From: Amoebophrya sp. A120
Taxonomy: Eukaryota > Protista > Dinoflagellata
Length of the DNA stretch: 64,000 bases
Assembly: GCA_905178155.1 (NCBI GenBank)
Contig: CAJINV010000004.1
Span: 7,694,771-7,758,770, forward strand
Direction of reading: 5' to 3'
Shown here in pieces: positions 1 to 63,600 of the stretch; positions within the stretch are counted from its first letter, which is position 1, and every line of letters begins with the position of its first letter. The notes under the pieces were generated by a model. The model made no database searches. It was not told where the DNA came from and saw only the letters and a program-made list of their open reading frames with translations. The position numbers and the translations under genes are program-made.

Positions 1-219
1 AAAGTGCGGACTGTAGTTCTGTATGGCGTGGAAAAGCCTTGCAGCTACAGCATGACAGGAGGCAGGAGGAAGTGGGAAACAGCATGGCAAATTGCCTACA
101 AACGAGGCCACGACTGCGTCGCTTGGCCTTCTAGCAATGCAAGTCGATTTGTGTACTCGAATACAGCATCACAAATTTCGTTTTTGATATGGGACGAGGG
201 GGAATTTTTCCTTTTGATA
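1..219. mobile_element. Introner-like TIR element, family A, right end only (cut by window start)
   Basis: Ends in ATATGGGACGAGGGGGAATTTTTCCTTTTGATA, the family A right TIR. Confidence 0.7.
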
Positions 220-3200
220 TCCGTGCCGCTTTCGCCACGCGATGGTCCTCGGGCATTCTGTAAGCGTGGCGGTGGTCATATCCCGACCCGGGTGTGGCTT
301 CACGGCTCTCGGCGGCACTGGACCCCGGGCCGTGCTGACAGATGCCCCAGTCTTATCGTAAGGAAAAATCCCCCCTCCCCATATTCGAAAATTTGTGTTG
401 CTGATTTGAGGCCACAAATCGCATATGTCTTGCACGAAGACAAGTGCAGCAGCTTCCCCCCTATTATGGACGCGATTTCTCATGCTGTGAAGCCTAAAGG
501 GGAGCCGTTTGCCATGCTGAACAACTAGACCCATACGCCCCTACCTAGCCTGGGGATCTGGCCGCAATGCCTCTGTGCAATACAAAGCTGATTTGTGTAC
601 GCAAATCCAGCATCACAAATTCCCTGTTCGATACGGGGTGGGGGGATTTTTCCTTTCGATAAGTCTTTCCGACTCCAGGCTGCAGCGTTGGCCGACCCGA
701 ACTGGTCCTGGTGCGAAGAACTATCAAATGCAGTTGTGTCTGGGAGGTCTGGAAACTTGTAATGCTGGTTTGGGAATAGTGAATGCTCTGTGATGCACGG
801 CCAAGCATGAGAAATTATGTCTGCGCTGCTTTAGTGTTGCGCTTTCCGCACGACAAACTGCGTTTTTGCATGACAAGCAAAAGGCTCTCTTCTTGGGCAC
901 GCATCACAAACTTTTCAGTCATGCCAGACAAGCATGACAAACCTTGCATCCTTCCAGAGGACCCAGACATATTTGCAATGCATAAGAGCTGCCCGCACTC
1001 GAAATTTTCCGGAGGAGTTCGGTGTGCGCGCCGAAGTCCTCGACGACCCCGGCCCACGGAGGGGACAGCATCGGGTGGTCGCCAGGTGGATGCGGGCCGG
1101 TCGGCGGCGAGTATTACAGTGAAAAGTGCCCCCCACCCCCAAAGTTGCAAAAATTTGTGATGCGAAGTTTCCAAATGAAAACTTTTTGTCATGCATGAAA
1201 GGAGTACGAATCCTTCTGATGCAGAGTCTAGTCGTGTTTCGCATCGCTTGCATGACAAGCGCCGCTCTTGCTGGGATCTTTTGCAATACAAATTTTTGCT
1301 ATTCACGGTCGGAAATCTGTGATGCTGATACATGCAAGAGGGCGAATGTTTCATTTGGAAAGGTTTGCAATAAGTACAAATGCTTTCAAGTTCGGGGGTG
1401 GGGGCATTTTTCATTGTAATAGCGAGGTAGTGCTGTTCATTCGATGTTGTGAAGAGGAGGGCCCGGACAATAGCGCGAGGAAAAATCCCCCCTCCCCATA
1501 TTTTTGACAGGGTACGTTTTCGAAAATTTGCGTTGCTGATTTGTGGCTGTTTTGCAGAGTGCTGGTCCTCTGTGGCCACAAATCTGTCTTGCAGGAAGGC
1601 TTTGCAGAAGGCGTCCGCCGCATTATGCAAGCGGAGTCGGTATTAATACCGACTAATGGGAAAATAAATACAGCACGAACGTTTATTTTCATGCTAAGCG
1701 CCTAGGCCAAAAACCTCTCTACTATTAACTCAGGCGTACTATATGGGCCTGCAGAAGATGTCGTCCTCTCCAGCAACACAAATCTGATTTGTGTAGTACG
1801 CAAACTGAGCATCAGAAACTTCGTTTTGGTATGGGACAGATCTTTCCTTTTGATACCGTCTTCGGCCGAAACCGACCATTCGTCCTCCGTCGAGCTGGAG
1901 TCGTCATCGCCGTCACCGGAGTCATATCCCAGAGAAAAAAGCTGGCAGGTCATATTTGTAATGCCAAAATAAATACACAAAAAAATCTGTATTGCATAAT
2001 ATCCGAAAGAACAGCATACTATGGCTGTCCGCCCATGACGAGTCTTTCTGTGTGTAGTTTATTTTTGCATTACAAACATGTCCTGCCAGCTTTTTTATTC
2101 TCTGGGATAAGTCATCTTCCAGGTCCGTTTTGGCACCCGGATCCACGGTGTAAAACTTGTTCCGTGCGTATCAACTGTAAAAATGTCTGGGTCTGGAAGA
2201 ATTCACGTTTGTCATGCTTGTCTGGCATGACTCTTAAATCTGTTATGCACGTTACTACCCAAGAGCTCCGTTTTATTTCTGTGATGCAGAAGCGCAGTTT
2301 GTCATGCAGAATAGGCAACACCTAGGAGCTCAGAAACTTGTCATGCTGAGCCAGCATCTGTAGCCTCATCATGAGACGCCACCCAGCATCACAAGTTCCC
2401 AGACCCAGACATTTTTACTTTTGATAGTGCGTCTTGCAGCACCATGCGCTGGAGGTTCAGGTCCGCCGCCGATGAACCGGCAGCCCCGGAGGTACTATGG
2501 TCATCTCCCGCAAGAACTACTACACCCTCGCGCGAAGTATCCTGTGCAAAAGCATCGCACTCGTAGTAATTGCAGTCATGCATCACAAATTTTTTTCCTA
2601 AGGTAAAACAGCATGATAAATTCCATTTCTCATGCTGACGGAATTTGTAATGCGATTTCTGCCACTACGATGCTTTTGCAATGCATATGAAGAATCCACC
2701 AGCGATTTCCGGCGCGGCACAACCACTGCCAGCGGGGACATCTGCGGCGTTTCGGGCAACATCTGCGGGTGGTCCAGGTCCTCGTGGTGGTCATGACTGT
2801 GACGGCGAGGTAGAAGACGATGCAGATCTTCTTGCTCCACCAACCGACAACTCGATTGATCTCCTTCCCCTGACGTCGAGCAGCCGCACTATCCTGAGGA
2901 ACAAAAACGGGGCCCACACGACCCCAGAGTTGTCAAGATGGGGATTTATTTGCAACACAAACCTAGAAGTTTTGGGACTCACGCGTCAACACAAGCTGCA
3001 GCTACCGTAGTGTAGTGCAGCTTAGCAGGGTTAAACACATATCACAAATCCATCTGCTTATGTATGATCCTGGTGACAGCGTAAATACAAATGCCACAAC
3101 ACGACTAGAAACGCCTCTCATGGAGATGCGCATTGCAAATGTTCCTGTCATTGCAAATCCGCGTGACAACTCTGGGGCCGTGGCGACGTTTTTCCAAATG

Positions 3201-5250
3201 TTACGCGCGGAAGACGATTGGCCATCAGCATCGATGGACAAGAAGAACTAGTGGAAGCACCACCACAACTTTTTTGTAAGCTGAAACTATAGTCTGCCCC
3301 ACGTCGACCACCTCCAAAACCCGCTGCGCGAAGATGAGGACTTCTTGAGGCAGCTCCGCTACTGCCCGTGGTCGACGCACCTACATGGGGCGACGACAAA
3401 ACAGGCGCTGGTGGTGGTGTAGCAGCTTCATCCCGGTCGAAAAACGAGCCGCTTTGTTCCCCGTGTAGTTCCCTTTCTTGTTCGCGCCGCATGAAGGTGC
3501 TGCTGTTCAGGAACCCTTCTCGCGGCAGACGCTGGAAATTTCTGCCAGACGTTGTTCTGCCAGCAGGAGCGGGACCGGCACCACTGGTACTACTACTAGA
3601 CGGGAGCTGCTGCGTGCGGTCATGATCATCGGGGGTCTTTATTTTCACCACGGGTGTTAATATCATTTGTTCCATATGGGCGGCGTCTTCACTTCGGGAG
3701 GAGACAACAGGAAGGCACATCAGCTCCTCTTGTTGGTCTTCTAGATCCATCTGGAATAAGTCGTCTTGTGGCTCTTGTGCCTCCTCCTCCTGCGGCGGCG
3801 CGAAAAAATTCTGACCTACAGGTCGTGGTGCTACGAGTTCTAGGTCCGAAGAACCTCTTCGCACAAGAGCCGCCAGGGCGAGGCCTGCCGGTAGTTGCTG
3901 GGGGTTTTGTCTTGCTTGTCGTGGAGACGTCGCCATTTCGTCAGTTCGCAGTGTGGTCGCTCGGCAGTTCGCCAGTTCTGCGGGTCCCGTCGTCATCGTT
4001 GCACCTGTATCAAATGCAAACCGATGTCTGGGTCCTGCTCTCGATGACTGCGTATGCGTGTCCTTGTCATGAAGATTTTGTCCCTCGAATTATAGTAAAC
4101 CAGGTAACGCAAAAGTGGTAAAAGTACAGGTTCTTGGCCGGAGGCTTTTTTGTGGTAAGTACTTAATCTTAAGTATAGTAAAAACAAGAAACAGATCGTA
4201 ATAATTGCTGTTCATACAAGAGGACAGATTTTGGTGCAGCTTGTTACAACCACCGCCCAGCTGCGCGGCAGCCACCATCGCAAGTTAATATAATTTGCAC
4301 TGTAGTTCAATATCCAGAGCAGGACCCAGATCAACATCGTCGATATTTGCAACAAGCATAACCTGCACCAGCCTTCAGTCCGCCGTGGAGATGGAAGTCC
4401 TCGCAGTCATCGTGACGACCTTGTGCGGCGGCCACGTGGAGTAGAAAGTGGTCCGGCAAAACTTCCTGCGACGGGCTGACTCGTGACCCCAGACTGCCGG
4501 CGGGGGCGTGGGGTTCTTCCAGACCGCCGACCTCCAGTGACCGATCCTCGTCGTCCGATACAGTACTTTCCTCGTCGCGCATGGCTGCAACAGACCCCCC
4601 TGCGAGAAAACAAAAGCTGTCCATTGTAGAGGTCGTTGTCTCCCCAGAAATATACCGCGATGTTACAGCAGGAGTTTTTCTCCTTGCCACAGCAGATCTG
4701 CGCTGGATGAAGTGCTGCTGGTGATCATTCTTCGTGTGCACCTCGTTTCCAACTAGTAGTCCTGCAGCTGTTCCTGCTGCTGCGCCCACGAACTGCTGCT
4801 GGTGCTGTCCCACCGCCGGCGGTGGTCCTGGAGAAAAATTACCACTATTCTGATGCGCGCCGTCGTGCAGAAGAGGTTGAAATAATCCGGGCCGGCTCCC
4901 TGTTGCCTGCTGCGGTCCCCGTGTGGCCGCAAAGAGGAGCAACAACAATGCTTGCGGGACGACCTTCATGCTCTTTTTGTTGTCGTGCGTCTTCGATTTT
5001 TGGTCCTCCATGTCGTCGTGCGTGGTCCAAGGCGGTCGTGGAGGCGAGGATGTAAATAGCTTCCGAATAGTCCTACGGGTAGAAGTGCACGCCTTGCTGC
5101 ACCTGATACAAGTAGTACACGACTTGGTTGCAGCTTGGAGGTGAGCCAGAAGAGCTGGTAGAATGATCGTACTGGTACTTCTTACCCCAAAGTAGTAGTA
5201 TAGATACTCCTCGCTGCGCGGCGGAGGGTCGTGATGCAGGTCATGACAAA
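1..5250 (-). CDS. Hypothetical low-complexity (S/G/D-rich) protein, multi-exon; 3' end runs off the window, 5' end uncertain
   Basis: Exons at about 4361-5250, 3204-4007, 2688-2889, 2427-2537, 2110-2168, 1856-1924, 1422-1470, 985-1111, 662-721 and 220-353. They join into one open frame (KAGAG|ATMTTG..NRLPR|GCSTS..VDSS|REGVV..QDA|RNKFY..EDD|SGDGD..TTS|PPTGP..AGSS|SHQDQ..RKD|WGICQ) when each TIR element plus 5 nt is removed. Confidence 0.65.
354..661. mobile_element. Introner-like TIR element, family A
   Basis: TIR TATCGTAAGGAAAAATCCCCCCTCCCC / GGGGTGGGGGGATTTTTCCTTTCGATA; DR AGTCT; highly similar to 45750-46071. Confidence 0.92.
722..984. mobile_element. Introner-like TIR element, family B
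   Basis: TATCAAATGCA..GTCTGGG / CCCAGACATATTTGCAATGCATA; DR AGAAC/AGAGC. Confidence 0.88.
1112..1421. mobile_element. Introner-like TIR element, family C
   Basis: TATTACAGTGAAAAGTGCCCCCACCCC / GGGGTGGGGGCATTTTTCATTGTAATA; DR GCGAG; sibling at 25493-25796. Confidence 0.92.
1471..1855. mobile_element. Degenerate introner-like element, family A
   Basis: TAGCGCGAGGAAAAATCCCCCCTCCCC..CCTTTTGATA. The DR is no longer recognisable, but removing the element plus 5 nt keeps the frame. Confidence 0.75.
1925..2109. mobile_element. Introner-like TIR element, family D (long TIR)
   Basis: TATCCCAGAGAAAAAAGCTGGCAGG / CCTGCCAGCTTTTTTATTCTCTGGGATA; DR AGTCA. Confidence 0.92.
2169..2426. mobile_element. Introner-like TIR element, family B
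   Basis: TATCAACTGTAAAAATGTCTGGGTCTGG / CCAGACCCAGACATTTTTACTTTTGATA; DR GTGCG; near copy at 10498-10749. Confidence 0.93.
2538..2687. mobile_element. Introner-like TIR element, family E
   Basis: TATCCTGTGCAAAAGCATCG / CGATGCTTTTGCAATGCATA; DR CGAAG/TGAAG. Confidence 0.87.
2890..3203. mobile_element. Introner-like TIR element, family F
   Basis: TATCCTGAG..AAAACG..ACCCCAGAG with a degenerate right TIR; DR CGCAC/CGCGC. Confidence 0.8.
4008..4360. mobile_element. Degenerate introner-like element, family B
   Basis: TATCAAATGCAAA..TCTGGGTCCTGCT / AGCAGGACCCAGA..TTTGCAACAAGCATA; DR ACCTG; interior decayed. Confidence 0.8.
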
Positions 5251-10497: not shown

Positions 10498-10749
10498 TAT
10501 CAACTGTAAAAGTGTCTGGGTCTGGAAGAATTCATGTTTGTCATGCTTGTCTGGCATGGCTCTTAAATCTGTCATGCACGTTACCCAAGAGAACCGTTTT
10601 TCTGTGTTGCAGAGCCGCAGTTTGTCATGCAGAATAGGCAACACCGATGAGCTTAGAAACTTGTCATGCTGAGCCAGCATTCGTAGCCTCATCATGACAC
10701 GCCACCTAGCATCACAAGTTTCCAGACCCAGACATTTTTACTTTTGATA
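10498..10749. mobile_element. Introner-like TIR element, family B, in 3' UTR or intergenic DNA
   Basis: Family B TIRs; DR TTGGC; about 100 bp past the stop codon of the KDEL gene. Confidence 0.92.
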
Positions 10750-10849
10750 TTGGCAGTAGAGGTACAACATCGAGGCGAGAGTATAGAGAGCAAGATATCA
10801 TTTTCCAACTACCCGCTGCACTAGCTTGTTTCCCTCGTCCTAAGTAAAC

Positions 10850-13800
10850 TTACAACTCGTCCTTCCCGGGCTTGGCGAGCTTCATGCCCGGCATGACCGG
10901 GACGTCGGCAAAAAACTCGGCCCACTCTTGCTCCGTGCGGCTGGCCGTGAACTTCTTCACATCCGCGCCGGTCGAGCGGGCCAGCTTGGTGAGGTACGCG
11001 TCCACGGAGAGCTTCTTTGCGCCGGACGCCGGGGCCACTTCTGATTTGTATTTATTTTCGAGAGGACTTTATTTTGGACTCAGAACATAGTAGATGAAAA
11101 AGAAAATTATGTGGTTGAAGCAAAAAACTGGTGCTGTTGTACAACTCAAAATCAATAATGCTGTACAGTCAGTTGCCCCAGAGTGTAGTTGCATGGCGTA
11201 GAGGTACCAGGTAGAACAAATAAGGTGTACTTTTTACTTGGGAAGGAAAAAAAAATGCAAAAAGAATGAAGCCCGTAAACTTAGCATTTTCCAAAAATTC
11301 TATCCGTAAATAATACTTTCCGGAGTCTTCTTCTTTTCCTTTTTCGCCGTGCGCTGCTTTTTTGCCTTCTTGGCGCCCCTATGGATTGCAAAAGTGTCTG
11401 GGTCTGGAAGACTGCCAGGTTTGTCATGCAGGTTTTCCATAACCCATGAGGTCTGGTATGTAGGACATAGCATGACAGATTCTGCGCAACCTTTCCAATG
11501 CCTATCCTGCGTGAGAAACTGCCTCTCGATTAGGTCAAAAGTGAACAACTTTCGGCAATCATGCAACACAGTTTTTTGCCTGATTCAGATTTAGCATGAC
11601 AAGTTGCATTCTTCCAGACCCAGACATTTTTACATTTGATAGCCCCCCGTGGCCTCCACGCTGCAGTAGTTGAAGCGGTTACAGTATGCAAGAAAAAAGA
11701 CTGTGTAGGTGTATACTTTCTTGAGAAGACATAGCATCACAAGTTTTCTCTACTGCATGACACAGAAAATAACCTGTCATGCGTAGCTAGTATCAGTGAC
11801 AAAACGCACGAAAAGAGCCTCTGACGCATGCCCAGCATGACAGGTATAAGTGTCTTGTATCGTCTGCAACAGAAAGTTACACTTATACGGTTTTTTCGTT
11901 GGATATAGAGCAGAGTTTCGCGTCGAGCTTGCCCTGCAGGAAAATCTTGTAGGCGTCCTCCTCCATCTCGTCGCGGAGGTATCCTGTGCAAAAAGTATCG
12001 GCTCCCACCCCAGAGTCAACGACTGGAGATCACGCATGACAAGTTCCTCTCGGTACTATTGTAGTGCAGTTTAGCAAGCACAGCCGCATTAAAAATCCAT
12101 CTGCTTACCCTGTTTACAGCATTACAAACATCAAAAAACAACTACGAATGGCCCTCATGGGGATGCGCATTACAAATCTTCCTGCACATGCAAATCTGCA
12201 TGACAAATTGCTGGGGTGGAGACGACGTTTTTCCTCCGGATAGGATGATTTTCGTGCACACCTCCGACAGCCGCTTTTTCCAGTTGTCCCCGCCCATCTG
12301 GATGGTTGCCTGTCCGCCCGCGAGCTCTTTCTCCTCCGCCGCGAGAGCCGGCCCGGAAAGGACGTTTTTGCCTTGGAATTCGTTCATTTTATCTATTGCA
12401 ATGTAAAATCAAAAATGATGTTAAAAAGCTCCACGTCGCGCTTGCCCGCAATCACAGCACTAGTTCTACTTGCGCCACCTACTTCGAAATTCAATTTCTT
12501 TTTTTGTAAAATGCAAAAACTCCAACGGGAAACAATATATGAAGGTGTTCTATACCGTTCAAAATATGGATGCGTCAGGATCGAAATTGACAAAGTCGAA
12601 AAATTTGTAATGCATAAAATGTAGGGCACGCGTGGCCTGTGTTGGGAAGCAGGCAAATGAGTCCGATTGCAAGCCTGTTTAGGCGTGTGCAATGTGCTGC
12701 CAGAGTAGCATGACAGGCGCAGTCTCTGTTGCCCAAACAGCATGACAGACTGCATTTGGGTGCTCCCGAAATTTGTCATGCGCCGCTTGCAAACTGAGAC
12801 TCCAACTGGTATCGATTTTATGCATGACAAATTATTTCAACTTTGTCGATTTCAAACCTGACGCTTCCATACAAAAGCTTGACTCCGTACCCCTCGTACA
12901 CGTCGGGGCTGCAGGCTTTTTCCATCATGTTATCAACTGTAAAAGTGTCTGGGTCTCCTGGAAGATTCTGACACTTGTCATGCGCGTTTTGCATGAGCCA
13001 CGATGTCTGTGATGCATACCCTAGCAATACAGATTTTTTGAGGGCTTCGGCTTCTTGATGCCCATTCCGCATGACAAATGCCTTCTCAGCGTAGCAAGAA
13101 ATGCATTGTTCCCTTTGCTATTCATGCACTACAGATTTTTTTGGAATCCAAATGCAGCATCACAAGTTGCATTCCTCCAGACCCAGACATTTTTGCACTT
13201 GGTACATGTCCTCGACTTCCCACTCCCGCAGCTTCCCCTCGCGTGACTTCGTTCCCCGGTTGAAAAACGTGGCATTTGTATCATTTGTAAAAACGTCCTC
13301 ACTCCCCATAGTTGTAAAATGCAATTCTGCATGCTGAAGATGTTTCTCATGCGGAGCCCCATGAGCGAGGCGCTTGCTAGTTGTGTTTCGGAATTTGTCA
13401 TGCTCCAATCAGCACCATCACGACGCGCTGGGTCTGTGTTTATGCTGGCGAGCTAGCTCGAAACACGACTACACTACGAGGATCGAAACTTGTCATGCGC
13501 AACAGCCAAGCCTTGTGGATTTGTCTAGTTGATTTCCCATCTTGACTACTTATGGGGTCGTGGGGACGTAGTTTTTACACAGGATAATTTGTGTGGAACA
13601 TCACGGACTTGCACGAGTTGCACATGTACATGGCCGGCATGTTGTAGCCGTGCTGGTCCTCCTCCGTGATTTGCGGAGCCTCGATCTGTTTGTTGGCATC
13701 AAGGGGGTTATTTTACAAACATGCTTTTTACCCCTTCTGAACAACGAGATGTTGACGCAAGAATCGTACAAAAGACCCGGCGCATGTGGTGCCACTGACA

Positions 13801-14097
13801 GAAAGCCTAATTATACGGAATCAACAAGAAACACGTTTAACATTTTCCCTTACGCAGAGGCAGAAGCCGCAACTACATCTCGAATTATATCATATAGCTA
13901 TGTCCTATCCTGTAGTACAACAAGTATACCTTGATGCTCTGCAGTGGTCGCCCTTGCTCATCCGTTGGTGGGGGTGCATCTGGAATCCCACCGCCCATCA
14001 TCGGTGCTGAACCACCATCCATTCCAAACTGTGCGGTAGCAAGCTGCGCGGCAACAACGCCGGCGAAAGCAACGCGAGCGAGCGTAGAAGTCGGCAT
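10850..14097 (-). CDS. MZB1/pERp1-like (saposin/canopy-related) ER-luminal protein with signal peptide and C-terminal KDEL
   Basis: Spliced product: MPTSTLARVAFAGVVAAQLATAQ..IEAPQITEEDQHGYNMPAMYMCNSCKSVMFH..EDMMEKACSPDVYEGYGVK..KNVLSGPALA..MGGDNWKKRLSEVC..LC..PGKDEL. This parallels the MZB1 motifs (APQL.DEE..MP..CDAC, YGV..L.GP.L, GG.W..RL..C). GT-AG introns at 13686-13929, 12393-12555 and 11041-11316, plus six introners. Confidence 0.82.
11380..11641. mobile_element. Introner-like TIR element, family B
   Basis: TATGGATTGCAAAAGTGTCTGGGTCTGG..CCAGACCCAGACATTTTTACATTTGATA; DR GCCCC. Confidence 0.92.
11685..11887. mobile_element. Degenerate introner-like element
   Basis: TAT..ATA ends and several GCATGAC/GCATCAC motifs. 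The DR is lost; removing the element plus 5 nt keeps the frame. Confidence 0.55.
11980..12242. mobile_element. Introner-like TIR element, family F
   Basis: TATCCTG..CACCCCAG / CTGGGGTG..CCGGATA; DR GGAGG/GGATG; junction KII|RDEM. Confidence 0.85.
12565..12871. mobile_element. Introner-like TIR element, family G
   Basis: TATGGATGCGTCAGGATCGAAATTGACAAAGT / ACTTTGTCGATTTCAAACCTGACGCTTCCATA; DR CAAAA; sibling at 49356-49663. Confidence 0.92.
12931..13204. mobile_element. Introner-like TIR element, family B
   Basis: Family B TIRs; DR CATGT; junction VEDM|MEKAC. Confidence 0.9.
13279..13586. mobile_element. Introner-like TIR element, family F
   Basis: TATCATTTGTAAAAACGTCC / GGGGACGTAGTTTTTACACAGGATA; DR ATTTG. 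Confidence 0.9.
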
Positions 14098-15360: not shown

Positions 15361-15681
15361 TATCGGAAGGAAATGTCCCCCCTCCCCATATTGAAAACGC
15401 ATTCCTCTGAAGATTTGTGATGCAGATTTGAGGCCACAAATCCTGCCTGTCTTGCAAGAAGGCAAAGCCAGAGAGTCCGCCGCATTATGCCGGCGGTTTG
15501 TGATGCTGTTGGGCTTACAGAGCCGACCTCTGTCATGCTAGTCCCCTACGTCGAAACCTCTCGACCCAGGCTTGGCATATACCTGCAGTTCTCTCCAGCA
15601 AGACAGACTTGATTTGTGTACGCAAATCCAGCATCAGAAACTTCGTTTCGATATGGGGAGGGGAGATTTTTCCTTTTGATA
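15361..15681. mobile_element. Introner-like TIR element, family A, in Acl4 3' UTR
   Basis: Family A TIRs; DR CGATT. Confidence 0.9.
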
Positions 15682-18700: not shown

Positions 18701-19342
18701 CGGATACTTTTGCAATTCATACAAGTACTTCTTCGCGGACAGGTTGTCTCCGTTATCAAATGTAAAAATGTCTGGGTCTGGAATGTTGCCGGGTTTATCA
18801 TGTATGTTTTGCATGACCCAGGATGTCTGTAATGCATGACTTAGCATCGCAGATTTTTGGAGGGCTTCCTGATGCCTAATCCGCATGACAAATGCCCTCC
18901 CCCCTTAGCACAAACTAGGCTGCTCTTGCTGATCATGCAATGCAGATTTTTCTAGAGTCCAGAGTTAGCATCACAAGCTCCAACCTTCCAGACCCAGACA
19001 TTTGTACATTTGATAGCCGTAGCCCGGGTGCAACTGGATACTCCGGCAGAAGAGCTCCCGCGCCGCGTCCGGGTCCTCCGCCCCGAACTGACAGAGAAAC
19101 TCTCCGTAGGCGTCCAGGCCGCGGTGGTCATTCGGGTGGTCCTCCACGCACTTCCGCAGAAACCGGTCGGCGAGCTCGGTGTCCGGCTGCCCGGCGTCGA
19201 GCAGCTGCTTCACCTTGATCAGCATGTCGGTCACCTTTTTCTTTTCCGCGAGCGTGGGCGCCGCATTCGAATTAGTACCATTCTTCGCGTTGGACGTGGA
19301 AAAGTTCGCGAAGAACGGGTGCTGAAACTGGAAACCCGGCAT
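15705..19342 (-). CDS. ACL4: Acl4-like TPR assembly chaperone of ribosomal protein uL4
   Basis: Spliced product contains KKYLYLAQMSDGHDALRLYEEALKV, ILVAMSEIYMTDLCDEPEAEEQCKFFLEKA (the Acl4 signature EI.MTDLC.EP.AEEQC) and VQCWYLLATLH. One GT-AG intron at 16642-16876 and five introners. Confidence 0.88.
15738..16060. mobile_element. Introner-like TIR element, family A
   Basis: Family A TIRs; DR CTGGA. Confidence 0.92.
16240..16530. mobile_element. Introner-like TIR element, family F
   Basis: TATCCTGAGGAAAAACG / CGTTTTTACACAGGATA; DR CAATC; junction LEDW|RENF. Confidence 0.92.
17780..18045. mobile_element. Introner-like TIR element, family B
   Basis: Family B TIRs; DR CTTTT; junction LEK|AYEYD. 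Confidence 0.92.
18574..18721. mobile_element. Introner-like TIR element, family E
   Basis: TATTCTGTGCGAAAGTATC / GATACTTTTGCAATTCATA; DR CAAGT; junction KYL|YLAQ. Confidence 0.9.
18754..19015. mobile_element. Introner-like TIR element, family B
   Basis: Family B TIRs; DR TCCGT/GCCGT. Confidence 0.9.
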
Positions 19343-27039: not shown

Positions 27040-27318
27040 TATCATATGCAAAAACATCCCCACCCCAGAGTTGTCATGCAAATCTGCACTCCAAAAAGGT
27101 TTGTCATGCGGAGCGCCATGAGAGGCATTGTCTAGTCGTGTTTTGGAATTTGTGATGCTACAATCAGCATGATATACTAGATCTGTGATGCTGCTGAACT
27201 ACCTAAACAGGATTACACTACGAGGACGAACTTGTCATGCCAAACGACCAAAGCTGGCTGATTTGTCTAGCAGATTTGCCATCTTGACTCTGGTGTGGGT
27301 ACGTTTTTACTCAGGATA
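27040..27318. mobile_element. Introner-like TIR element, family F; host context unresolved
   Basis: TATCATATGCAAAAACATCCCCACC / ACGTTTTTACTCAGGATA; DR AAACT. Confidence 0.88.
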
Positions 27319-44248: not shown

Positions 44249-45048
44249 ATGATGGCGTTTTTATTTCGAGTTCGACGAGCGTTGTTCGCGCTTTTCTTTC
44301 TGCGGTCGTATCCTGAGTAAAAACGTCCCCACCCCATAGTCAAGATGGGGACCACTTTGCAGCACAAATCCACAAGTTTTGGGAGTCGCGCGTGATAAGT
44401 TTGGGCTCGTAGTGTGATCCAGTTTAGCTAGTGCAGAGGCATCACAAATCGACTGCCTCATCCTGATTTCAGCATCACAAACTCCCAGATAGTAGCAGAA
44501 AATGGCCCACATCATGGACCTGCGAATGAGAAATGATATTTTTTGTCTTGCAGATGACTTGCATGACAACTACGGGTAGTTGGGGACGTTTTTGCTCCGG
44601 ATAGGTCGCTGTCGGACAACATTTTGGCGAACGCGGATTTTTCAGGACCGTCGGCGGCCCCGAGCGCAGTGGGAAATCAAGAACAGCGGGAGCGAGCAGC
44701 AGGGACCCATCGGCACAAGAGCGATGTCCTCGCGGGAAATAAGAATGAAGATAGGGACGGCGCAACACTATGTCTTGCAAAAGTACTTCTATCGCACTAG
44801 TGTACGAATCGCGTTGCACCTTTTTCCCGGCATCCATGACTAGAAATGGACCTTGTAATGCGGATTTTTTACCATACGGAAGCAAAAGCATGACTGCAAT
44901 TTATTCTACTACGAGTGCGATACTTTTTCTCCTTGGATACTATGCACTGGAGATGAACCGTAACTCCGCGCTGAGTGAAAATTCATCTCTGCATGAAATG
45001 AACGAAACGATAGGTAGAGAAGAGCTTTTGGTACTACAAGGCTGCTGA
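44249..45048 (+). CDS. Small hypothetical protein with signal-peptide-like N-terminus
   Basis: MMAFLFRVRRALFALFFLRS|LSDNILAN..DGAT|LEMNRN..QGC* after removing two introners. The 3' end could be spliced further. Confidence 0.5.
44309..44603. mobile_element. Introner-like TIR element, family F
   Basis: TATCCTGAGTAAAAACGTCCCCA / TGGGGACGTTTTTGCTCCGGATA; DR GGTCG. Confidence 0.92.
44769..44942. mobile_element. Introner-like element, family E (diverged)
   Basis: TATCGCACT.GT / ACGAGTGCGATA inverted arms; DR AACAC/TGCAC. Confidence 0.75.
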
Positions 45049-45649: not shown

Positions 45650-48600
45650 ATGGACTCGCCAAATTTCGCGTCGCCGCCCACCCGGGCGCGCAGCTGCCTG
45701 GGCGAAGACCATCCGCAACACAGCCAGAGCACGAAGTCGGACACCCTTTTATCGTAAGGAAAAATCCCCCCTCCCCATATCGAAATGGAATGTTTCCGAA
45801 AATTTGTGTTGCTGATTTGAGGTCACAAATCACATTTGTCTTGCAAAAAGACAAGGGTAGAAGCTTCCGCCCCATTATGGAAGCGATTTGCCATGCTGTT
45901 GGCCCTAAAAGTGGCCCGCTTGCCATGCTGAACAACTAGACCCATACGCCCCTACCTAGCCTGCGGATCTGGCCGCAGTGCCTCTCTGCAATACAGACCT
46001 GATTTGTGTACACACTTCCAGCATCAGAAATTCCGTTTTGATATGGGGAGGGGGGATTTTTCCTTTCGATACCTTTCGAACCGGGAGGACCGCCTCTCCA
46101 CCTTTGGCCGCTCGCCCCCGCACTATCCTGAGTAAAAACGTCCCCACCCCATAGTTGTCATGCAGATCTGCATGCTCAGAATGTGTGTCATGCGGCTCTC
46201 CATGAGAGGCATTACCTAGTGGCGTTTGGGAATCTGTCATGCGCTAATCAGGATGACAGACTGGATCTGTGATGCGTTTGAATTAGCCAGGCACGACTAC
46301 ACTGCGTAGCCAAACTTTTTATGCGTGAGTCCCAAAGATGCTCGATTTGTCTTGCCAAAGTCCCAACTTGACTATGGGGTGGGGACGTTTTTACACAGGA
46401 TACGCACTCAGGTTGCACCAGCCTGATGCTGGCCGCCTGCAGTCGGTGTCACCGGGAGTTTTTATTGGAAAAATTGGACCGGGACGGGGACAATAACCAC
46501 ACGTGTGTCAGTATTGATAAACTTGTTTTAGTTTTACAGATGATTACCGCGTTTTCGTGATGCAGATTTGCACATGTTGTACCATTTGCATACCATGATA
46601 TTTTTCGCATGACAAATCACTTCTCGAACAAGCCTACAACCCCTATCACTCTACCCAGATTGCCGCGAGCGCCAGGAGACGCTGAGCGAGATTCTGTCCA
46701 CGGAAATCATTATCTCCGACCCGTATCCCGTCAGCGACGACGAAAAAGGGGACGTCGATGGTCTTCAGCATCACAACTTCGCGTCCTCAGCGCACCAACC
46801 ACATCCAATCGACGCGTCGCCGGAAACCGCACGCGGTGCGGGGGTCCAATTGCTCCTGCACCGGCCGAACAACACCGTGATGTGCAACAAGCGAGGACAA
46901 CATCCGACGACGACCCTGGCCCGCCGGCAGCACCGATACTACGCCGGGTCCGAGGATAGTCTGGCGCTGGACATGCGCAAGAAGTCGGCGGAACTTCTGT
47001 TGCAAAAGCGCGAAGACCTCGCCATGTTCGAGGACGACGTCATGCAGGCCAGCGAGAGCTTATGCAATGCAAAAGTATCTTCGCGCTCGTTGTACTAATT
47101 GCAGATATGAATGACAAATCTTCTTCCTAACGCCAAAACCGCATTACAAATTTCTCTTGTCATGCTGAGCTAATTTCTAATGCGGTTTAAACTAGTATAA
47201 ACGAGTGCGAAGATACTTTTGCTATGCATAGAGCTCGCCTCCCAACCACATGCCGTCCTGCGACGGGATGGTCGTGGTGTGTGGCGGCGCAGATCATCAT
47301 GCGGGGGCAACGAGTGCGACGGGGGAAGAAGCTGCGCAGGATCATACGGAAAGAAACGTGATTTCCACCACAGCTGCAAGTGGACCTGAAGATGATCCGC
47401 TCGCACCGAAACGACCAGGAGTCGAACACGCAATAAAAACATCCAGCTCGTTATCTGCAACCGCGTCATTACCAACCGACCAGGATCAACATTTCGGCGT
47501 CGTGTCCTCCTTGAGCGAACTGGAGACCGATGGCCTGGACCTGATGGCAAGCCAGAAACTAGACGGTTTGCGATTCGTCCACGACGAGCGGACAGCGGGA
47601 GTTGTGCGGGAAGATGAGGATACAGGAACGGGGAAAGAAGATGAAACTGATCCGGTTGATGTTCACCACCAAAAGAAGACAGGAGGAGTAGAAGCTTCAG
47701 ATGTAGTAGTTGGAGCAGAGCGACATGCCGTAGAAAGCGGAGATATTGACCACCTCCAAGCAGCGCCTAAAGTAGGTGACGATGAAGAGGAGCCGGACGA
47801 GGAGGTGCTGCACGTCGTGCCCCACCGTGATTACACCGTCGGCGTAGACAACGCACACTTCTGGCGCGAGGTCGGACCGATTTACACCGGCACAGCGGTC
47901 AGATTTCCCAGAGCAAATTTCGAAAGTACAGAAATAACAGGCGCAAGAACAGCAAGAACGTCAAGAGGTAATAATGATGATGATGATCATCTTGTCCACG
48001 CGACGTCGGCGGCAGTCGCTGGTCAGGAGCGGGACAGCAAGGACTGTTGTTCCACTACAATCACCGACTGCTCCACCACCGCGCACAACGTCTCCAGCAC
48101 CACCGAAGTACTAGAGCACGACGCCAGTACCAACAGCGGGGCATCAAAGGTCTTACTACAGAGTTGCAGCATGGCAGATTTGGACCACGCCTACGGGCGG
48201 CTCGGGTTCCGTCGGCAGGAGCAATTTTGGCACGAGCAGCGGTCGTCGCGTGAGGAGCCTACAGTCAGGATGTTTGGGACGAGCGGGGTGGACGAGTTGT
48301 ACACAGAGGAGGTTGTTGGTACGTCGCATCAAGAGGAGGACCACGTTGAGAATTATGATGTTGAACACGAAGACAAAAATGAAGCAGCCGGAGGTGGATC
48401 AGCAGTTCCTCTAGAGGATTACTCCTCCTCTTCGACCAGCGCCGAAAGCCGTGAAGAAAGCAGAGAAATAAAAGACAAACCCGTGCACAAGCACACACCC
48501 GAAATTCTTGAAGAAGAGACCATCGACCTGTTTTTGAGCAGCGTGCTGCAGCTTCCGGGCGGTGGTGCAGTGGGCGCTACGGACGTAGATGCAAATCTCG

Positions 48601-51600
48601 GCGATAAGAACAAGAGTTCTGGTGACAGCAGGGGACGAAACGAGAATGCAGTCAGCGACCTTAATATTCAACCGGGCAGAGAGCAGCTCTCGGACCACTT
48701 CGACGACATTGTCAGCGTGTTCTGCAAAAGCAAAAGCACACCGAGTTCTTGTGTGGCCGCCGGAACAAGTAGCGCAGGAGCAGTAGTACCGATGAGGAAA
48801 TTGACCGGTGGTCTGCCAGCAGCGTCCAGCTTCTCTCTCCTCGGCTCTTCCACGGAGAGTGGCAGTGCGGGAGGAGGAGGAGGAACAGCAAAGCGTTCTT
48901 CTTCGCCACACCCCAACCCGCTCCTGTCTCTCTCTCCCCCGATCTCCGCGACGACAAACGCGCAACAGGCTTTGAAATCGCCGCAAACGCGCCACTCGCT
49001 CCACTTCAGCCTCGATATCGCGTCCAAACATACGCACAACAGGGTCAACTATCAAATGCAAAAATGTCTGGGGCTGGAACAAGATTGCAACTTGTCATGG
49101 TAAATCCGAATCATGCAAAAATCTGTGTTGCATGAGTGCCAAATAAAGCTGCCCACTTTCCTCGACCAAGTTGGGAGGGAGTTTCTCATGCAGGAGAGGC
49201 ATGACAGAGACCTCACAGACTCTTTCATGCTAGGTCCCGCATTCCAGACCTCATGGGTCATGGAAAACCTGCATTACAAGTTCCAACCTTCCAGACCCAG
49301 ACATATTTGCAATGCATATCAACCAAAGTTTGATCGGGACGCTACTCGGGTTCGATATGGATGTGTCAGGTTTGAAATCGTCAAAGTTGAAATAGTTTGT
49401 CATGCATAAAACGGATACCGGTTAGACCTACAGTTTGTAGTCGGTGCATGACAAATTTTCCCGGTCCTGGAAGCGAGTCTGTCATGCGGTTTAGGGCAAA
49501 AGAGCTGCCTTCTGTCATGCTACTTAGCAGTCCAACTTTTGACCCTTACCAGGACTATAATCTGCCTCCCGTGGGTCCTCTGCAATAGAGTCACTTTTTG
49601 TATCGCATTTTATGCATTACAAAGTATTTCAACTTTGACGATTTCAAACCTGACGCCTCCATAATCGAGAACCAGATGCGCGCGGGGGCGGCGGACATGA
49701 AGAAAGTGGAATACGTGCAGAGCGGCGGTGGTGGTGGGGGAAATGGAAATGATAGCAGAGTGATGAACAACAGTACAACTTTAATCACCGACACCAGTCT
49801 TCTTCCAGTAGGACCACTAGTGCAAAATAACAAATCCAACTTTCTCCTGGAAGAAGAAGACGACCCGAGTGTCGAGCACGAGCGCGCGCCCTGCCGGTTC
49901 TGCGGTCGCAAATTCCGGGTGGATCGGTTGGAGGTGCACGAGAGCATGTGTCTGACGAAAAACGCAATGGCACGGCCCACGTGGGACAGCCGCCGGCAGC
50001 GGTTGAAGGAGATCCCGGCCCTGTTCTTGCACAGTATCGACCACGACCGGAGTGCCATGTACGAGCATCTCGGAGGTGGACACAGTTCCTACCTCGGAAC
50101 CGGAGATCATAGTTCTACCTCTCATGGGGGATCATCATCATCATCCTCCTCATCTTCTTCAGCCGCGTATCATGGTAATAGAGGAGCTGCCGCAAGTCGA
50201 ACCGCTGGTGCGCATGGTGGTGGCAATGAACGAGGAACGACTGGGCCTTCCTCGTCGTCGTCGTCGTCGTCCACGGCTGGCGCTAAGGGAACTGGACGTG
50301 GGGGAGGAGGCGCTGGAGGTGCATCTAGTACAACAACAGTGAAACTTATCGTAGGAAAAAACTGTTTCACTGTGATGATTTTGCAAGATCTGCATCACAA
50401 GTTTGTTACACATCACAAAGAAAACTTGGCATGCGTGCTTCCTAAGGGAAAACACAGCTAAGAATCCAATGTCTTGCATGTGTAGCAAGACAAACACATT
50501 TGCGTTCCGTTCTATGCATCACAAGTTCACAGTGAAACAGTTTTTTCTTGCGATAAAACTCGCGGCCTCTCTCCGGTCGAAGTTGACCCGGTCGGGCAAG
50601 AGCGCTGCGAGAGCCTATGGATTGCAAATATGTCTGGGTCTGGAAGATTAAATTAAAACTTGTCATGCTAGATCTGAATGATGCAAAAATCTGTGTTGCG
50701 TGAGTACCAAAAGCTGTCCGCTTTGGACCAAGTTGAGAGGGAGTTTCTCATGCAGGAAAGGCATGCGAGAGACCTCAGAGAATCTGTCATGCTGGGTCTC
50801 GCATTCCAGACCTCATGGGTCATGGAAAACCTGCATGACAAGCCTTGCATCCTTCCAGACCCAGACACTTTTGCATTTGATAAGGCCGGCGGCAGAACAT
50901 CAACGGCGGTGGGGTCATCTTCTAGTTCGAAGCCGGCAGCTGCCGTGCTCCGAGTGAATGCCGGGGCCGTTGCGGCCTATCCACCTGTGGGAGCTACCAG
51001 CACCACACCAGGGAGGACGACGCAGGCCGGAGGGCAGCAGGGGGTTCCTGCGACGACCAGCAGTGCTTCAAGCAGCTCAACGTCATCTTCAAAGCAAGGA
51101 AACAATTCCTTCAACCCAGCCGCCCGATCCGGTGTCCCTCCTGCGACGGATGTGTCCTCTGGTGCCACGGAACAAACTACAAGCAGAAATAATAAAAACC
51201 CAGTGACCACGACTCTTTCCCCACCGTTGCAGGTGAACAAAAATCTGGACCACACTACAAACGCTTCGGGTCCAACGCTGAAGCAAGGTGCCCTCGGAAA
51301 TGCGAAAGGCAAGAGCCACATGCCACCCGAGCAACCATCGAAGGACGAAGATCTGGTGCGCAAAGAGTGTCCGCACTGCCACCGGTTCTTCCGGCCAGAA
51401 GCACTCGAAGTGCATCGGCGCGTGTGCATTTCGGTCTTCGGAACGAAGCAGAAGATGAAACCGAGTTCTTGTGGGGCGCAAGCTAGTACAGGGGGGAGAA
51501 AGGAAAGCAGAAAGCAACGTAGTACACATTTGTGATGATAAGTGTTTCGATTGAGCATCAAATTTCGTTTTAGTCCGATGTAAACCGAGTCCAAGTTTGT

Positions 51601-58447: not shown

Positions 58448-58545
58448 TATCAAATGTAAAAATGTGTGGGTCTGGAAGAATGCAACTTGTGATGCTGCAT
58501 TTGGATTCCAAAAAAATCTGTATTGCATGAGTACACAAGGAAAAA
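58448..58545. mobile_element. Truncated family B element (one arm only), intergenic
   Basis: TATCAAATGTAAAAATGTGTGGGTCTGGAAG.. matches the reverse complement of about 13105-13204. No partner TIR was found. Confidence 0.75.
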
Positions 58546-60605: not shown

Positions 60606-63600
60606 ATGGCGCCCGGCGGCGGTGGCGGCGGGCGCGCCCGCCTGAACCGGAGCTTGATCGACGTGGACAGTCGGATTGGTCTAGACGGGCTTTCCGATTC
60701 GATCGCGCGCGATTTCAGTGCGTGCTCCGTGTCCGTGTTGTCGAAGGAGCAGATCCAGGACATTGCGTGCGTGCAAATCACCCACGCTAACATATTCGAC
60801 GAGTTTGGGACCATTCTCCGCAATGGCCTGCACGACGAGCGCATGGGCGGGTGGTCCGACCGCGCGGACACGCCCTGTCCGACGTGTAAGTTATCGATGG
60901 ACCAGGGGTGCGTTGGGCACTACGGCCGGATCAAACTCACCGAGCCGGTGTTTAACCCGTTTATGATGACCACGTTGGTGAAGCTGATGAAGAATTGCTG
61001 TCGAAACTGCAATAAAATCCGCATGCACGACGCGGAGAAAGAGAATTTGCTGAGAAAATTCCAGTACTGCCGCCTCGGGTTTCTCCCGCCCGATCGGGTC
61101 TTCGACAAGAAGGACGGCAGTAATTTAGAGCGCGAATTGGACGCGGGAAACGGGTTCGACGACGACAACAGCGCGGACACGGTGGTCAGGTACGAAGACC
61201 ACACGTACCTGGCGAGGTCGGAAACGAAGGCGGAACCCAGTGGTATACTAGAACGTTTTAATGATGGTTTTTTGCATGAGATGGAAATGTTAGATAGTAG
61301 TAGAGTCGGCTTGTTTAATATTCCAGCTGATCTTCGTAGCGACCATACTATTGCTGTATCATTGTAGAGTGTAGTCGTGCACGGATGTTGTTGCTGCGAC
61401 AGATTCTTAACTTTCAGTTTGACCGAAAACCACTTTCGCAAGTTACCGAAATATTTTTAAACTGAAAATATTCACAGCGTCCTCCTCCTCCTCTTCTTCC
61501 TCCCCAAAGACGAGCTCCGCTTCGCAAAACGACTCTTCCGTCGCCCACAAGCTGCGGGAGGAAACTTGGGAGGCGAAGAGCAGCGACGACCACCGGCAAT
61601 TTGCGAAGGATTTGATATCACAGTGCACAACTCCCCCTCCCCCTCATTTGTCATGCAATATACCCAATCCAACCTTTGAGTCTTGGCACTGTTTGCATGA
61701 CAAGTTCTGGTACCCCAAATAGCACTACAATCCAGTAGAAATTTGTCATGCAAAACCGGCACTCTTGCTGATGCTTGTATTGCCGCTTATGCAATATAAA
61801 TGAGGCGGAGGGGGAGTTGTGCACCGTCATATTTGAAAGAGTCCGTGCAGAAAGCGGACGAGAAAAAGCGCAACAAGGCTTTGCGGCAGTTGGCAAAGTA
61901 CTCGCACGACAACAGCCCGGACCGCGAGCTGCCGAAGCAGGGCACCGCGGAGTTTAACGCGGCGTTGCTCGAGACTTATCGCGGTTTGTTCGACTACTTT
62001 GAAAAGAACCAGCCCATGGGGAAGTGCGCCAACTGCGGTTCGTTATCGGATAAGTGGCGGAAGGACGGGTGGAGCCGGGTGTTTGTCACGTACAAGGACC
62101 CGAACACGGGCGAACAGGTGCAGAACCTCGCGATCCCGCGCATGGTGCAGAAGATGCTGGAGAAAATCTGGAACGGCGAGGATCAGGAGCTGTTGGAGTA
62201 CCTCTTCCCCGGCAGCCGGCACTTCGGCGCGGGCAAGGGCTGGGAACTGTTCTTCATGGAGGAATTACTGGTAACCCCGAATCAGTTCCGCGCGCCCCGG
62301 AAGACGACCAGCGAAATTTGGCAGCTGGACCACGAAAGTAAGTGTCTGCAGGCGATCCTGTTCGCCTGCGACGAGTTGAAGAAGGTCGCCGCGGAAAAAA
62401 CGAAGAACAAGGAAGGGACAGCGAACCAGGCGGGAGGCGGCGGTAGCGGTGGTGGTGATGCGGGTCAACGACAGGCACTACTGGACAACGCGGACGCCAG
62501 CACAGACCCGAAGAAACTTCAACTACAGGCGAACCTCGAGGACTTTGCGATGCAAAATGACAAAGCAGGAACTTTGAATGAGGGGACAACTGGAGAATTA
62601 CAGCAGCAGACCACAACAAAATCCGCATACCAACAGAAAATCGACGACACGGCGCTGGCGAAGGCGTACGTGACGCTGCAGGAGAAGGTAAACGTGTACA
62701 TGGATGGGTCGAAGGGCGTGTCCAAAGCGGAACTGGAATCCAAGGGCATCCGGCAGAAAATCGAGAAGAAGCAGGGTATGTTCCGCATGAAGATGATGGG
62801 AAAAAGAGTCAACTACGCCGGTCGCTCCGTCATCTCCCCCGAACCCAACGTCGAAACCAACGAGTATCAAATGCAAAAATGTCTGGGTCTGGAAGAGTGC
62901 CAGGCTTTTCATGCATATTTTGCGTGACACATTATGCCTGTAATGCATGGCCTAGCATGACGGATTTCTGGTGCGTATTCCGCATGAGAAATACCCTCTC
63001 CGCGTAGCACAAACTGGACTCCTTTTGCTGGTCATGCAATACAGACTTATCCTAGAATACAGACGCATCCTAGGGTTGCGTCTCGCTATCAGGGTTTCGC
63101 CAACTCCGCGGGGGCGTTGCGGGTATCTCCCTAAAACACCAAAACCGGCACAAATTGGGCCGGCAGTCCGGGTAATTGCTCACCAGCCGGTTTGTATGGC
63201 GGAATAAGGTGCTCGACGAACGAAGAAGTAAGCATGTAATTAGCACCTCCGGTTGGTAGAGCGATCGGCCACCGAGGCACGTCAGGGGGCGTCGCTACTT
63301 CAATTCAATTCAATCCAAAGACAGCATTACAAGTTGCAATCTCCCAGACCCAGACATTTTTGCAATCCATAACGAGATCGGCGTGCCGATTTTTATGTGC
63401 AAGGTGCTCGGCGTGCCCGAGCGGGTGTGGCAGGGGAACCTGCAGTACTGTCAGCAGCTCGTGCGCAACGGCAACGACATCTACCCGGGGGCGTCGCAGC
63501 TGTTCGTTCCCACGGCGGACGGTCAGCGGTACAACGTGATCGACCTGGACAAGCTGAATTTCGACGGGCGCAACACCCACGCGGAAAACCTGTCGGGGTC

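Follow-up and report, generated by a model that had tools for sequence, protein, structure and literature searches.

TA-ended inverted-repeat elements removed from transcripts in Amoebophrya sp. A120 and the register of their removal

The 64,000-nucleotide stretch of Amoebophrya sp. A120 DNA analyzed here (the window) raises the question of how genes crowded with transposon-like insertions still yield intact proteins, and at which bases the insertions leave the RNA. The element system itself is already known, as non-canonical introners have been published for this strain (PMC7789003). In A120 and A25 they were described with inverted repeats, direct repeats of 3–5 nt, many families, RNA-supported removal and a motif of TAT, 7 nt and an A-run (PMC7789003), while Farhat 2021 called the border position unknown, with no clear splice signature (PMC7789003). 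What is added here is a fixed cut register for these elements.

Inverted-repeat elements of the window

The original prediction of about 50 inverted-repeat elements, starting TA(T), ending (A)TA and flanked by 5-bp direct repeats, was borne out. The window holds 48 complete TA...TA elements of 148–507 bp (12,853 bp in total), besides two single ends, a right one at 219 and an orphan left one at 58448. TA is present at both ends in 48/48; on the + strand, 47/48 start with TAT and 44/48 end with ATA. The flanking 5-bp repeat is exact in 31/48, carries one mismatch in 14 and two mismatches in one, and is missing in two, and exact flanking repeats of 3, 4, 6 or 7 bp were found in 0/48 elements. 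In a second assembly, exact 5-bp repeats were found in 268/366 cases. Duplication mismatches avoid positions 3–5 (35/56 at positions 1–2, p=6e-4). A strict scan of the window gave 29 hits versus 0 in each of 20 Markov shuffles.

Clustering at 62% identity resulted in eight multi-copy clusters and five singletons, or about 10 families once shared termini are counted, in line with the at least nine expected. Column counts reveal the terminal pattern of TAT, seven looser bases and an A-run; a looser version (TAY-N7, two A within three bases) is present at 38/48 left and 40/48 right ends, and the two ends show symmetry at each of 30 tested positions. Both insertion orientations occur, and three empty paralogous sites near elements each contain one target copy. 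Most elements had been said to carry in-frame stops, and 39/42 have stops in all three frames. Terminal inverted repeats, a target-site duplication made on insertion, the lack of coding capacity and the many copies all match miniature inverted-repeat transposable elements (MITEs). The proposed search for long elements sharing these termini and encoding a transposase returned no such cognate autonomous element among 144 loci and the window. The elements are small transposon copies without coding capacity, bounded by TA...TA inverted repeats and flanked by a target duplication of 5 bp.

Removal from RNA and the host genes

The features of the first part of the window, with family numbers F1 to F10, are as follows.

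1..219, minus: F3 right end, cut by window start
354..661, minus: F3 element, exact 5-bp duplication, gene 1 (P0121)
722..984, minus: F1 element, duplication mismatch at position 2
1112..1421, minus: F6 element, exact duplication
1471..1855, minus: F3 element, no duplication; joins deposited protein at register 4 only
1925..2109, minus: F9 element, exact duplication
2169..2426, minus: F1 element, exact duplication; skipped by RNA-like contigs, loose end 2427
2538..2687, minus: F4 element, mismatch at position 5; removal from RNA-like contigs' overall span
2890..3203, minus: F2 element, mismatch at position 2; register at least 2
4008..4360, minus: F10 element; two donors, one acceptor
10498..10749, minus: F1 element, 3' UTR of MZB1-like gene; removed in 4/4 runs
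11041..11316, minus: canonical GTAT...AG intron
11380..11641, minus: F1 element; removed in RNA-like contigs
11685..11905, minus: F5 element, mismatch at position 3; register 3–5 from RNA
11980..12242, minus: F2 element, mismatch at position 2; register 2–5 from RNA
12372..12555, minus: canonical GTAT...AG intron, after micro-exon
12565..12871, minus: F7 element; removed in RNA-like contigs
12931..13204, minus: F1 element, 5' end TAC; removed
13279..13586, minus: F2 element; removed
13686..13929, minus: canonical GTAT...AG intron
15361..15681, minus: F3 element, TPR gene; removed
15738..16060, minus: F3 element, TPR gene; removed
16240..16530, minus: F2 element, TPR gene; removed
17780..18045, minus: F1 element; removed despite no predicted terminal stem
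18574..18721, minus: F4 element (KYL|YLAQ); removed
18754..19015, minus: F1 element, synonymous mismatch at position 5; register 0–4 from RNA

Mapping of RNA, proposed with the original prediction, agreed with it: RNA-like contigs lack the element plus 5 nt at 16/16 elements in 2300–19400 (12 from listed joints, two from contig pieces and two from the contigs' overall span), and the RPA1 elements are likewise missing from an RNA-like contig. The element-free form makes up the main contigs in 4/4 runs; these runs (X1–X4) share one sample label and their assignment to RNA is the tool's guess, though the contigs join across GT-AG introns. The remaining features are listed below, a dot marking elements without an assigned strand.

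22340..22490, minus: F4 element; empty paralogous site nearby, one target copy
22548..22811, minus: F1 element; empty paralogous site nearby
23020..23228, minus: F5 element; empty paralogous site nearby
23407..23615, minus: F5 element
24653..24965, minus: F1-ended element, PLD-like gene
25060..25348, minus: F1 element, PLD-like gene (NWTRA|AKRN), mismatch at position 2
25493..25796, minus: F6 element, PLD-like gene
25884..26074, minus: F8 element, PLD-like gene, mismatch at position 2
27040..27318, dot: F2 element
36153..36418, plus: F1 element, 1336-aa frame
37441..37687, plus: F1 element, mismatch at position 3
38560..38814, plus: F1 element
39098..39365, plus: F1 element
40407..40712, plus: F1 element
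40813..41077, plus: F8-ended element
44309..44603, dot: F2 element
44769..44939, dot: F4 element, no duplication
45750..46071, dot: F3 element
46124..46402, dot: F2 element
47061..47230, plus: F4 element, 1224-aa C2HC zinc-finger frame; unbroken in DNA-like contig
49050..49318, plus: F1 element
49356..49663, plus: F7 element
50347..50555, plus: F5 element
50616..50882, plus: F1 element, mismatches at positions 1 and 2
58448..58540, dot: orphan F1 left end, no right end found
61616..61831, plus: F8 element, RPA1; RNA-like contig resumes at 61831
62865..63371, plus: F1-ended 507-bp element, RPA1 (ETNE|IGVP); RNA-like contig skips 512 nt

Removal of each element with 5 nt leaves open frames of 866 aa (9 elements), 611 aa (3), 350 aa (4), 1336 aa (6), 1224 aa (5) and 560 aa (2). 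As anticipated for the loss of one repeat together with the element, +5 gives the longest frame, compared with +3 and +4, in 32/42 stranded elements (p=1.6e-8). Six of the ten exceptions come from the MZB1-like gene, whose frame is broken by canonical introns and whose RNA supports +5. The description of the hosts as essential genes is overstated: it applies clearly to RPA1 alone, one insertion is in a 3' UTR (MZB1-like gene), and several host genes have no Pfam match. Among the proposed names, RPA1 stands and the PLD-like identity is backed by PF13091; the MZB1-like identity is weak (E 0.013), and "Acl4" is supported as a TPR gene only. The 1224-aa frame encodes a C2HC zinc-finger protein.

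It is hardly conceivable that the loci are pseudogenes, or that removal occurs at nearby GT-AG sites. By chance, 3/42 elements do offer a GT/GC-AG pair in some register, but the joints skip element plus 5 nt exactly, which contradicts this reading for 16 elements. RPA1 is colinear with its yeast and human counterparts, yeast residue 494 ending the upstream exon and 495 starting the downstream one, and the deposited host proteins are intact.

The prediction had spoken of splicing or excision, of which removal from RNA stands and excision from DNA is disfavoured. Elimination in some life stage, similarly to the internal eliminated sequences of ciliates, would suit TA-bounded, transposon-like sequences in an alveolate host. 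However, the listed contigs of the DNA-like run X5 pass from unique flanks into element ends at a unique-copy depth of ~23–27, and 47061–47230 is spanned unbroken; this evidence is a single run, among the joints listed, and contigs drop rare variants. Spores derive from the feeding-stage nucleus, so DNA excision would be inherited, and it appears very improbable. The evidence supports the elements as Amoebophrya-type introns that derive from transposons, lack GT-AG borders and leave the RNA together with exactly the length of one duplication.

The cut register

The register k is the number of duplicated bases kept upstream. Mismatched duplications bound it to at least 3 at 11685, at least 2 at 11980 and 2890, and at most 4 at 18754 (a synonymous site). 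For the duplication-free element 1471–1855, the transcript-based deposited protein is matched at k=4 only, of 0–5, a value predicted before that protein was retrieved, and two RNA-like contigs stop at 1857, the predicted donor. Element 4008..4360 is joined from its outer donor in RNA-like contigs and, in the deposited protein, from an A|TAT donor lying 15 nt further inside; this alternative junction uses a TA-NNNN| acceptor. Both k=4 anchors taken from P0121 come from annotation rather than reads, and the 1471 donor happens to be GT. In an SNF2 junction of the second assembly, a residue conserved in A25 is kept only at k of at least 3. A common register, with donor N|TA(T) and acceptor TA-NNNN|, is thus direct for a few elements and inferred for the rest.

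With one register, each intron begins with one duplicated base and closes with four, and the mRNA reads as it did before the insertion. The element TA then falls at intron +2/+3, as in the GTA donors of this genome (canonical donors in the window: GTA 9/9, GTAT 5/9), and U+2 and A+3 are found in 43/43 at register 4. Termini at the inferred register are GT in 13/43, AG in 3/43 and both in 0/43. All 16 first/last base pairs occur among the elements, so a spliceosome acting on them would have to do without the usual G-G pairing of the termini, which counts against it. The claim that splice sites are not borrowed from the target holds for GT-AG, but the target does contribute, with the cut lying inside the duplication (one base to the donor, four to the acceptor). 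Both A positions of the 3' ATA vary, and the first exon base is a purine in 21/43. Ends without TA lie at the transcript 3' end in 5/5 confidently stranded cases and 10/13 by best guess, an asymmetry of few elements, three from one locus, seen without RNA.

A jump of RNA polymerase II, or of reverse transcriptase in library making, between the 5-bp repeats across the hairpin seems unlikely. A hairpin with a direct repeat is a classic template-switching setting, and the 3' part of the repeat is depleted of mismatches. Yet neither the annotated junction at 1471–1855 nor the alternative one at 4008 has a repeat or microhomology, the joined form dominates every run, and RPA1 would yield no product if that form were an artefact.

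Candidate machineries and significance

A terminal stem is predicted in 25–28/43 elements and an inner stem (positions 9–13) in 33–37/43; positions 4–8 pair poorly, and 37/43 fold better than shuffles at z<-2. No G-U wobble bias was seen (30 G-U vs 34 A-C; 118 vs 114), nor any sense-strand advantage (sense more stable in 22/43), and no strand-specific motif, such as a possible branch site, survives multiple testing. The idea that structure alone guides removal is not supported as stated, in view of the cut inside the duplication, the dispensable duplication at 1471–1855, the terminal-stem count and the missing wobble bias.

The explanation towards which we lean is an altered, U1-less U2/U6 spliceosome guided by the element ends. 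The element TA would provide U+2 and A+3 of the usual GUA donor, neither G+1 nor the terminal AG would still be read, and a factor recognizing the element ends would replace U1 and measure the acceptor 4 nt beyond the element. The end signals could comprise TA-T-N7-AAAA, a sub-terminal GCATSACAA motif that the ends share, and an inner stem bringing them together, while a DDE transposase, suggested by the duplication, would mobilize the elements. As inverted repeats, the ends present identical signals in both orientations, which would make insertions nearly harmless and able to spread. U1 was not detected in A25/A120 (PMC7789003), and it is present in a GT-AG Amoebophrya. The match of the TA ends to GUA may be a coincidence, as a transposase would also need TA. 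In Table S4, 9/9 top A120 site pairs are NT-NN and 9/9 top A25 pairs TT-NN, the A25 repeats starting TTA (PMC7789003); these pairs may reflect aligner preference.

A lesser, though real, possibility is a second, non-spliceosomal splicing by an endonuclease and a ligase, or a dedicated RNP, which would recognize the stem and cut 1 nt before and 4 nt after it. Cuts fixed relative to the inverted repeat, symmetric ends with free termini, the strongly predicted inner stem and the Euglena precedent (code N3CDG...CH'G N5-6|R, base pairing, circles) speak for it. The folding results are less favorable, given the absent wobble bias and sense-strand advantage and the poor pairing at positions 4–8; moreover, 17780, 4008, 11380, 11685 and 11980 are removed with little or no predicted terminal stem, TA is lost at 3' ends but not confidently at 5' ends, and the register puts TA exactly at +2/+3. 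That A120 splices nuclear mRNA with a second machine as well, one that does not depend on the spliceosome, has converged on the euglenid system and accepts any target sequence, is rather doubtful.

Compared with the published A120/A25 introners (PMC7789003), the elements are of the same kind, sharing inverted repeats, motif and non-GT-AG removal, and are distinguished here by a strict 5-bp target duplication and the fixed register. They also come from the same strain, the RPA1 and gene 1 exons being 100% identical to proteins named Amoebophrya sp. A120. Euglenid non-conventional introns (PMC12501133, PMC11282704) are likewise non-GT-AG, with a terminal stem, direct repeats, fixed spacers from the stem, coexistence with GT-AG introns and a proposed MITE origin; circles have been reported for them (PMC12501133, PMC11282704). 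Their spacers are 3 and 5–6 nt with CDG/CH'G, and a purine starts the exon, whereas here they are 1 and 4 nt with TA: the ends read N-TA(T) and TA-N4 and do not follow the euglenid code. The MITE introners of Micromonas, Aureococcus, Symbiodinium and Chrysochromulina (PMC9860276) are also non-autonomous DNA transposons cut within the duplication, with the mRNA restored, but they retain GY/AG-type sites co-opted from the target (PMC9860276), unlike the elements here. The non-canonical introns of Fritillaria borealis are also MITE-derived, with terminal inverted repeats and a duplication, and are removed by an altered U2 spliceosome (PMC11282704); their termini are mainly AG-AC and AG-AT (PMC11282704), whereas both termini are free here.

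Non-canonical introns make up two thirds of the A120 total. Under the rule N|TA(T) ... TA-NNNN|, the "variable borders" become a single code open to testing, which suggests that A25 follows it as well and points to the bases worth mutating and the places to seek lariats or circles. If the spliceosome is responsible, it can do without G+1, AG and U1, a point relevant to 3' splice site choice and to how transposons become tolerated introns. If it is not, Amoebophrya would have a second splicing machine and a class of transposons that erases itself from RNA in either orientation.

A known introner system in A120

The TA...TA inverted-repeat elements of the window are real and spliced, and the system is already known, because exactly the same one has been published for the same strain by Farhat et al. 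2021 (PMC7789003). The available text of that paper counts 29,850 repeated introns in A120 and groups them into 1954 families, with repeats of the form TAT + 7 nt + A-run and direct repeats of 3–5 nt; U1 was undetected, no transposase was reported and the border position was left unknown. The available part of PMC12130899 adds A120 elements that have TIRs and contain LTR-like frames; related literature (PMC9860276 and PMC11453091, likewise in available parts) was considered, and PMC13326754 does not mention Amoebophrya.

A strict scan for TA...TA inverted repeats, which also required a flanking 5-bp repeat, returned 29 matches in the window and not one in any of 20 order-3 Markov shuffles. Extension by end profile gave 48 complete elements of 148–507 bp, together with an element truncated where the window begins and a single left end that lacks its partner. 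All share TA-T-N7-A-run ends; clustering at 62% identity yields 8 multi-copy clusters and 5 singletons, and a GCATSAC-type motif is found 150 times within the elements (12.9 kb) versus 26 times in the 51 kb outside. An Rfam search of the window found no family. The flanking 5-bp repeat is exact at 31 of the 48 elements, carries one mismatch at 14 and two at 1, and is absent at 2, namely the elements starting at 1471 and 44769; exact flanking repeats of 3, 4, 6 or 7 bp occur at none of the 48. For three elements in the duplicated segment at 22.2–23.3 kb, an empty paralogous site (identity 29/35, 34/35 and 33/35) carries a single target copy, and the repeat is therefore a target-site duplication. 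Duplications of 5 bp are typical of DDE integrase-like transposases.

Metagenome contigs were scanned with the end of family F1 (18 of 64 parts), giving 148 loci, of which 144 were examined; those listed all come from one other assembly. Relatives of 46 of the 48 window elements occur there at 65–91% identity, and an SNF2 exon of this assembly matches strain A25 at 56% and has no A120 match. Among its 366 paired ends, 268 show an exact 5-bp repeat and 346 at most two mismatches; 141 of the latter passed a strand filter. Comparing the two ends across 184 elements shows symmetry at 30 positions, and both orientations are present among these elements, as in the window. Mismatches between duplication copies concentrate at positions 1–2 (12/16 in the window, element 1471 excluded, and 23/40 in the second assembly). 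When the search was run without the TA requirement, the ends were still T in 612/618 and A in 615/618. In 5/5 confident and 10/13 best-guess strand calls, the non-TA end is the one at the transcript 3′ end; three of the exceptions fall in one kinase-like gene (weak PF10436).

The original prediction had proposed a search for long elements with the same TIRs and a transposase frame; none was found in the 144 loci, nor any other autonomous element. Pairs above 450 bp either measure 457–1031 bp and lack a long internal frame or stretch across two elements. A 4.2-kb pair in locus L069 was rejected as a long element, as what lies inside it is a host exon, whose one match, to PH, is weak. Three long F1 elements (L034:3862–4492, L006:9473–10727 and L058:6001–6972) hold extra non-coding inserts, two of them mutually related; the elements thus capture or nest other sequence. 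Raw RNA reads of run X9 match element parts at window 50652–50707 and 62865 at 95–99% and continue into other flanks: element copies elsewhere are transcribed, and either stay in the RNA or belong to pre-mRNA. The X9 reads (127) and those of a second raw RNA run, X10 (3), fall on element parts only and have no bearing on host genes.

Further features of the window are the following:
1466–1860, mutually complementary flanks (two G-U pairs) of the duplication-free element 1471–1855, lengthening its predicted stem by 5 bp
21390–22000, tandem micro-repeat arrays (units of 11–20 bp), adjoining an internally duplicated frame with four elements
28400–33700, GC-rich island that lacks TA elements and separates the minus-strand genes from the plus-strand genes; it contains a ~71-bp tandem palindromic array (30930–31520) and a 230-bp palindrome (31738–31967), matches nothing in Pfam or Rfam, and is a candidate for a strand-switch region or one with a chromosome function
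34440–35140, different intergenic repeat of ~700 bp with a short inverted repeat at its borders, sharing 79% identity across 553 bp with the second assembly (L058, L059)
43603–43976, scaffold gap of 100 N flanked by 95-bp inverted arms, in a stretch of short CATG-rich repeats; probably a repeat that the assembly left unresolved
54431–59590 (+), DHFR-like, Der1 and cyclophilin genes with canonical introns only or none in the pieces seen, and no complete element

Removal from RNA and the host genes

Four contig sets under one sample label (X1–X4) were guessed to be RNA and do join across GT-AG introns. All 16 elements in 2300–19400 are missing from them: 12 among the joints listed, 18754 and 4008 from contig pieces, and 2890 and 2538 from contig span. 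Every measurable skip equals the element length plus 5, including 10498 in a 3′ UTR, and the RPA1 element 62865–63371 is likewise skipped in an RNA-like contig. In 44100–64000, where a DNA-like run (X5) dominates the matches listed, RNA joints are readable for 2 of 11 elements only. In this run, which behaves like genomic DNA, the elements are retained at unique-copy depth among the pieces listed. The RNA-like contigs, which answer the RNA check suggested in the original prediction, thus bear out loss of the element plus 5 nt. Excision at the DNA level is therefore disfavoured, since it is at odds with elements retained in the DNA-like run and absent from RNA-like contigs. The same evidence disfavours the reading of the host loci as pseudogenes, which had been named as a refuting case, as RNA-like contigs join the exons with element + 5 nt removed while the DNA-like run keeps the elements. 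At 12556–12560 (−), a ~5-nt micro-exon between element 12565–12871 and a canonical intron is kept in 4/4 runs, which suggests that removal needs no exon definition.

Open frames of 866, 611, 350, 1336, 1224 and 560 aa, spanning 9, 3, 4, 6, 5 and 2 elements, respectively, appear once element + 5 nt is taken out, and +5 outperforms +3 and +4 in 32 of 42 stranded elements (host strand missing for 6 of 48, or 5 once 10498 is placed). RPA1 follows its yeast counterpart colinearly across the joint, between residues 494 and 495; its exon is 100% identical to the deposited RPA1 protein P0001 (named Amoebophrya sp. A120), which contains ETNEIGVP, and the A25 orthologue reaches 44%. The remaining hosts are PLD-like, TPR, C2HC zinc finger and MZB1-like (weak) proteins and others without a family match. 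A search for a deposited protein of the 46.6–51.5 kb gene gave no match.

The cut register

Differences between the two copies of a duplication let the RNA-like contigs show which copy is kept, and hence limit k, the number of duplicated bases left in the upstream exon. RNA-like contigs place k at 3–5 for element 11685 and 2–5 for 11980; k is at least 2 at 2890 and 0–4, at a synonymous position, at 18754. At 1857, placed by length four bases into the flank of 1471–1855, two contigs stop, each from a different run; at this duplication-free element P0121, the deposited, transcript-based protein of the minus-strand gene with elements 354–4360, fits k = 4 only. At 4008 P0121 uses an inner donor cut between A and TAT, with the acceptor again 4 nt beyond TA. 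As the limits at mismatched duplications and the 1471 and 4008 junctions agree, the intron reads N-TA(T) ... TA-NNNN, on the basis of six window elements and one from the second assembly, two of them via annotation.

At that register, the donors of 43 elements are GT (13), CT (12), TT (10) and AT (8), the acceptors comprise 15 dinucleotides, and GT-AG termini occur in 0/43; all 16 first/last base pairs are present among the 141 stranded elements. Canonical donors of the window start with GTA in 9/9. The top pairs in Table S4 of Farhat et al., all NT-NN in A120 and all TT-NN in A25, fit the register, though aligner preference may contribute to this agreement (PMC7789003, available text). No statement of the rule was found in the available text of the literature searched; Figures 3 and S19–S23 of that paper may show it.

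Candidate removal mechanisms

Folding predicts a strong inner stem, with positions 9–13 paired in 33–37 of 43 elements and z < −2 in 37/43; the terminal pair is predicted in 25–28/43 only, and elements lacking a predicted terminal stem are still removed from RNA-like contigs. No sense-strand folding advantage emerged (22/43), nor any wobble bias among the 141 stranded elements of the second assembly (G-U 118 vs A-C 114). Strand-specific k-mer tests were null, and an asymmetry at position 3 (9 at 5′ ends versus 4 at 3′ ends) was not significant. A terminal-A branch point is weakened by 3′ ends ATG, ATT and ATC in restored frames.

U+2 and A+3 contact the spliceosome core. We lean modestly towards an altered spliceosome that takes its cues from the ends of the elements, because TA is needed on the donor side, coincides with canonical donor positions +2/+3, and U1 is lost only in non-canonical Amoebophrya strains according to the available text of two sources (PMC7789003; bioRxiv 2024.09.05.611473). 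In such a scheme, the ends would guide the machinery and the donor TA would take the place of the canonical +2/+3. A non-spliceosomal ruler is a less probable but serious contender: the termini are free, no branch motif was found, and non-conventional introns of Euglena, with fixed spacers measured from a stem, offer a precedent (PMC12501133; PMC11282704, in their available parts). Template switching, which is weakened by junctions without homology, is very improbable. For a system already published, the fixed register adds something useful, as it makes the removal mechanism testable.
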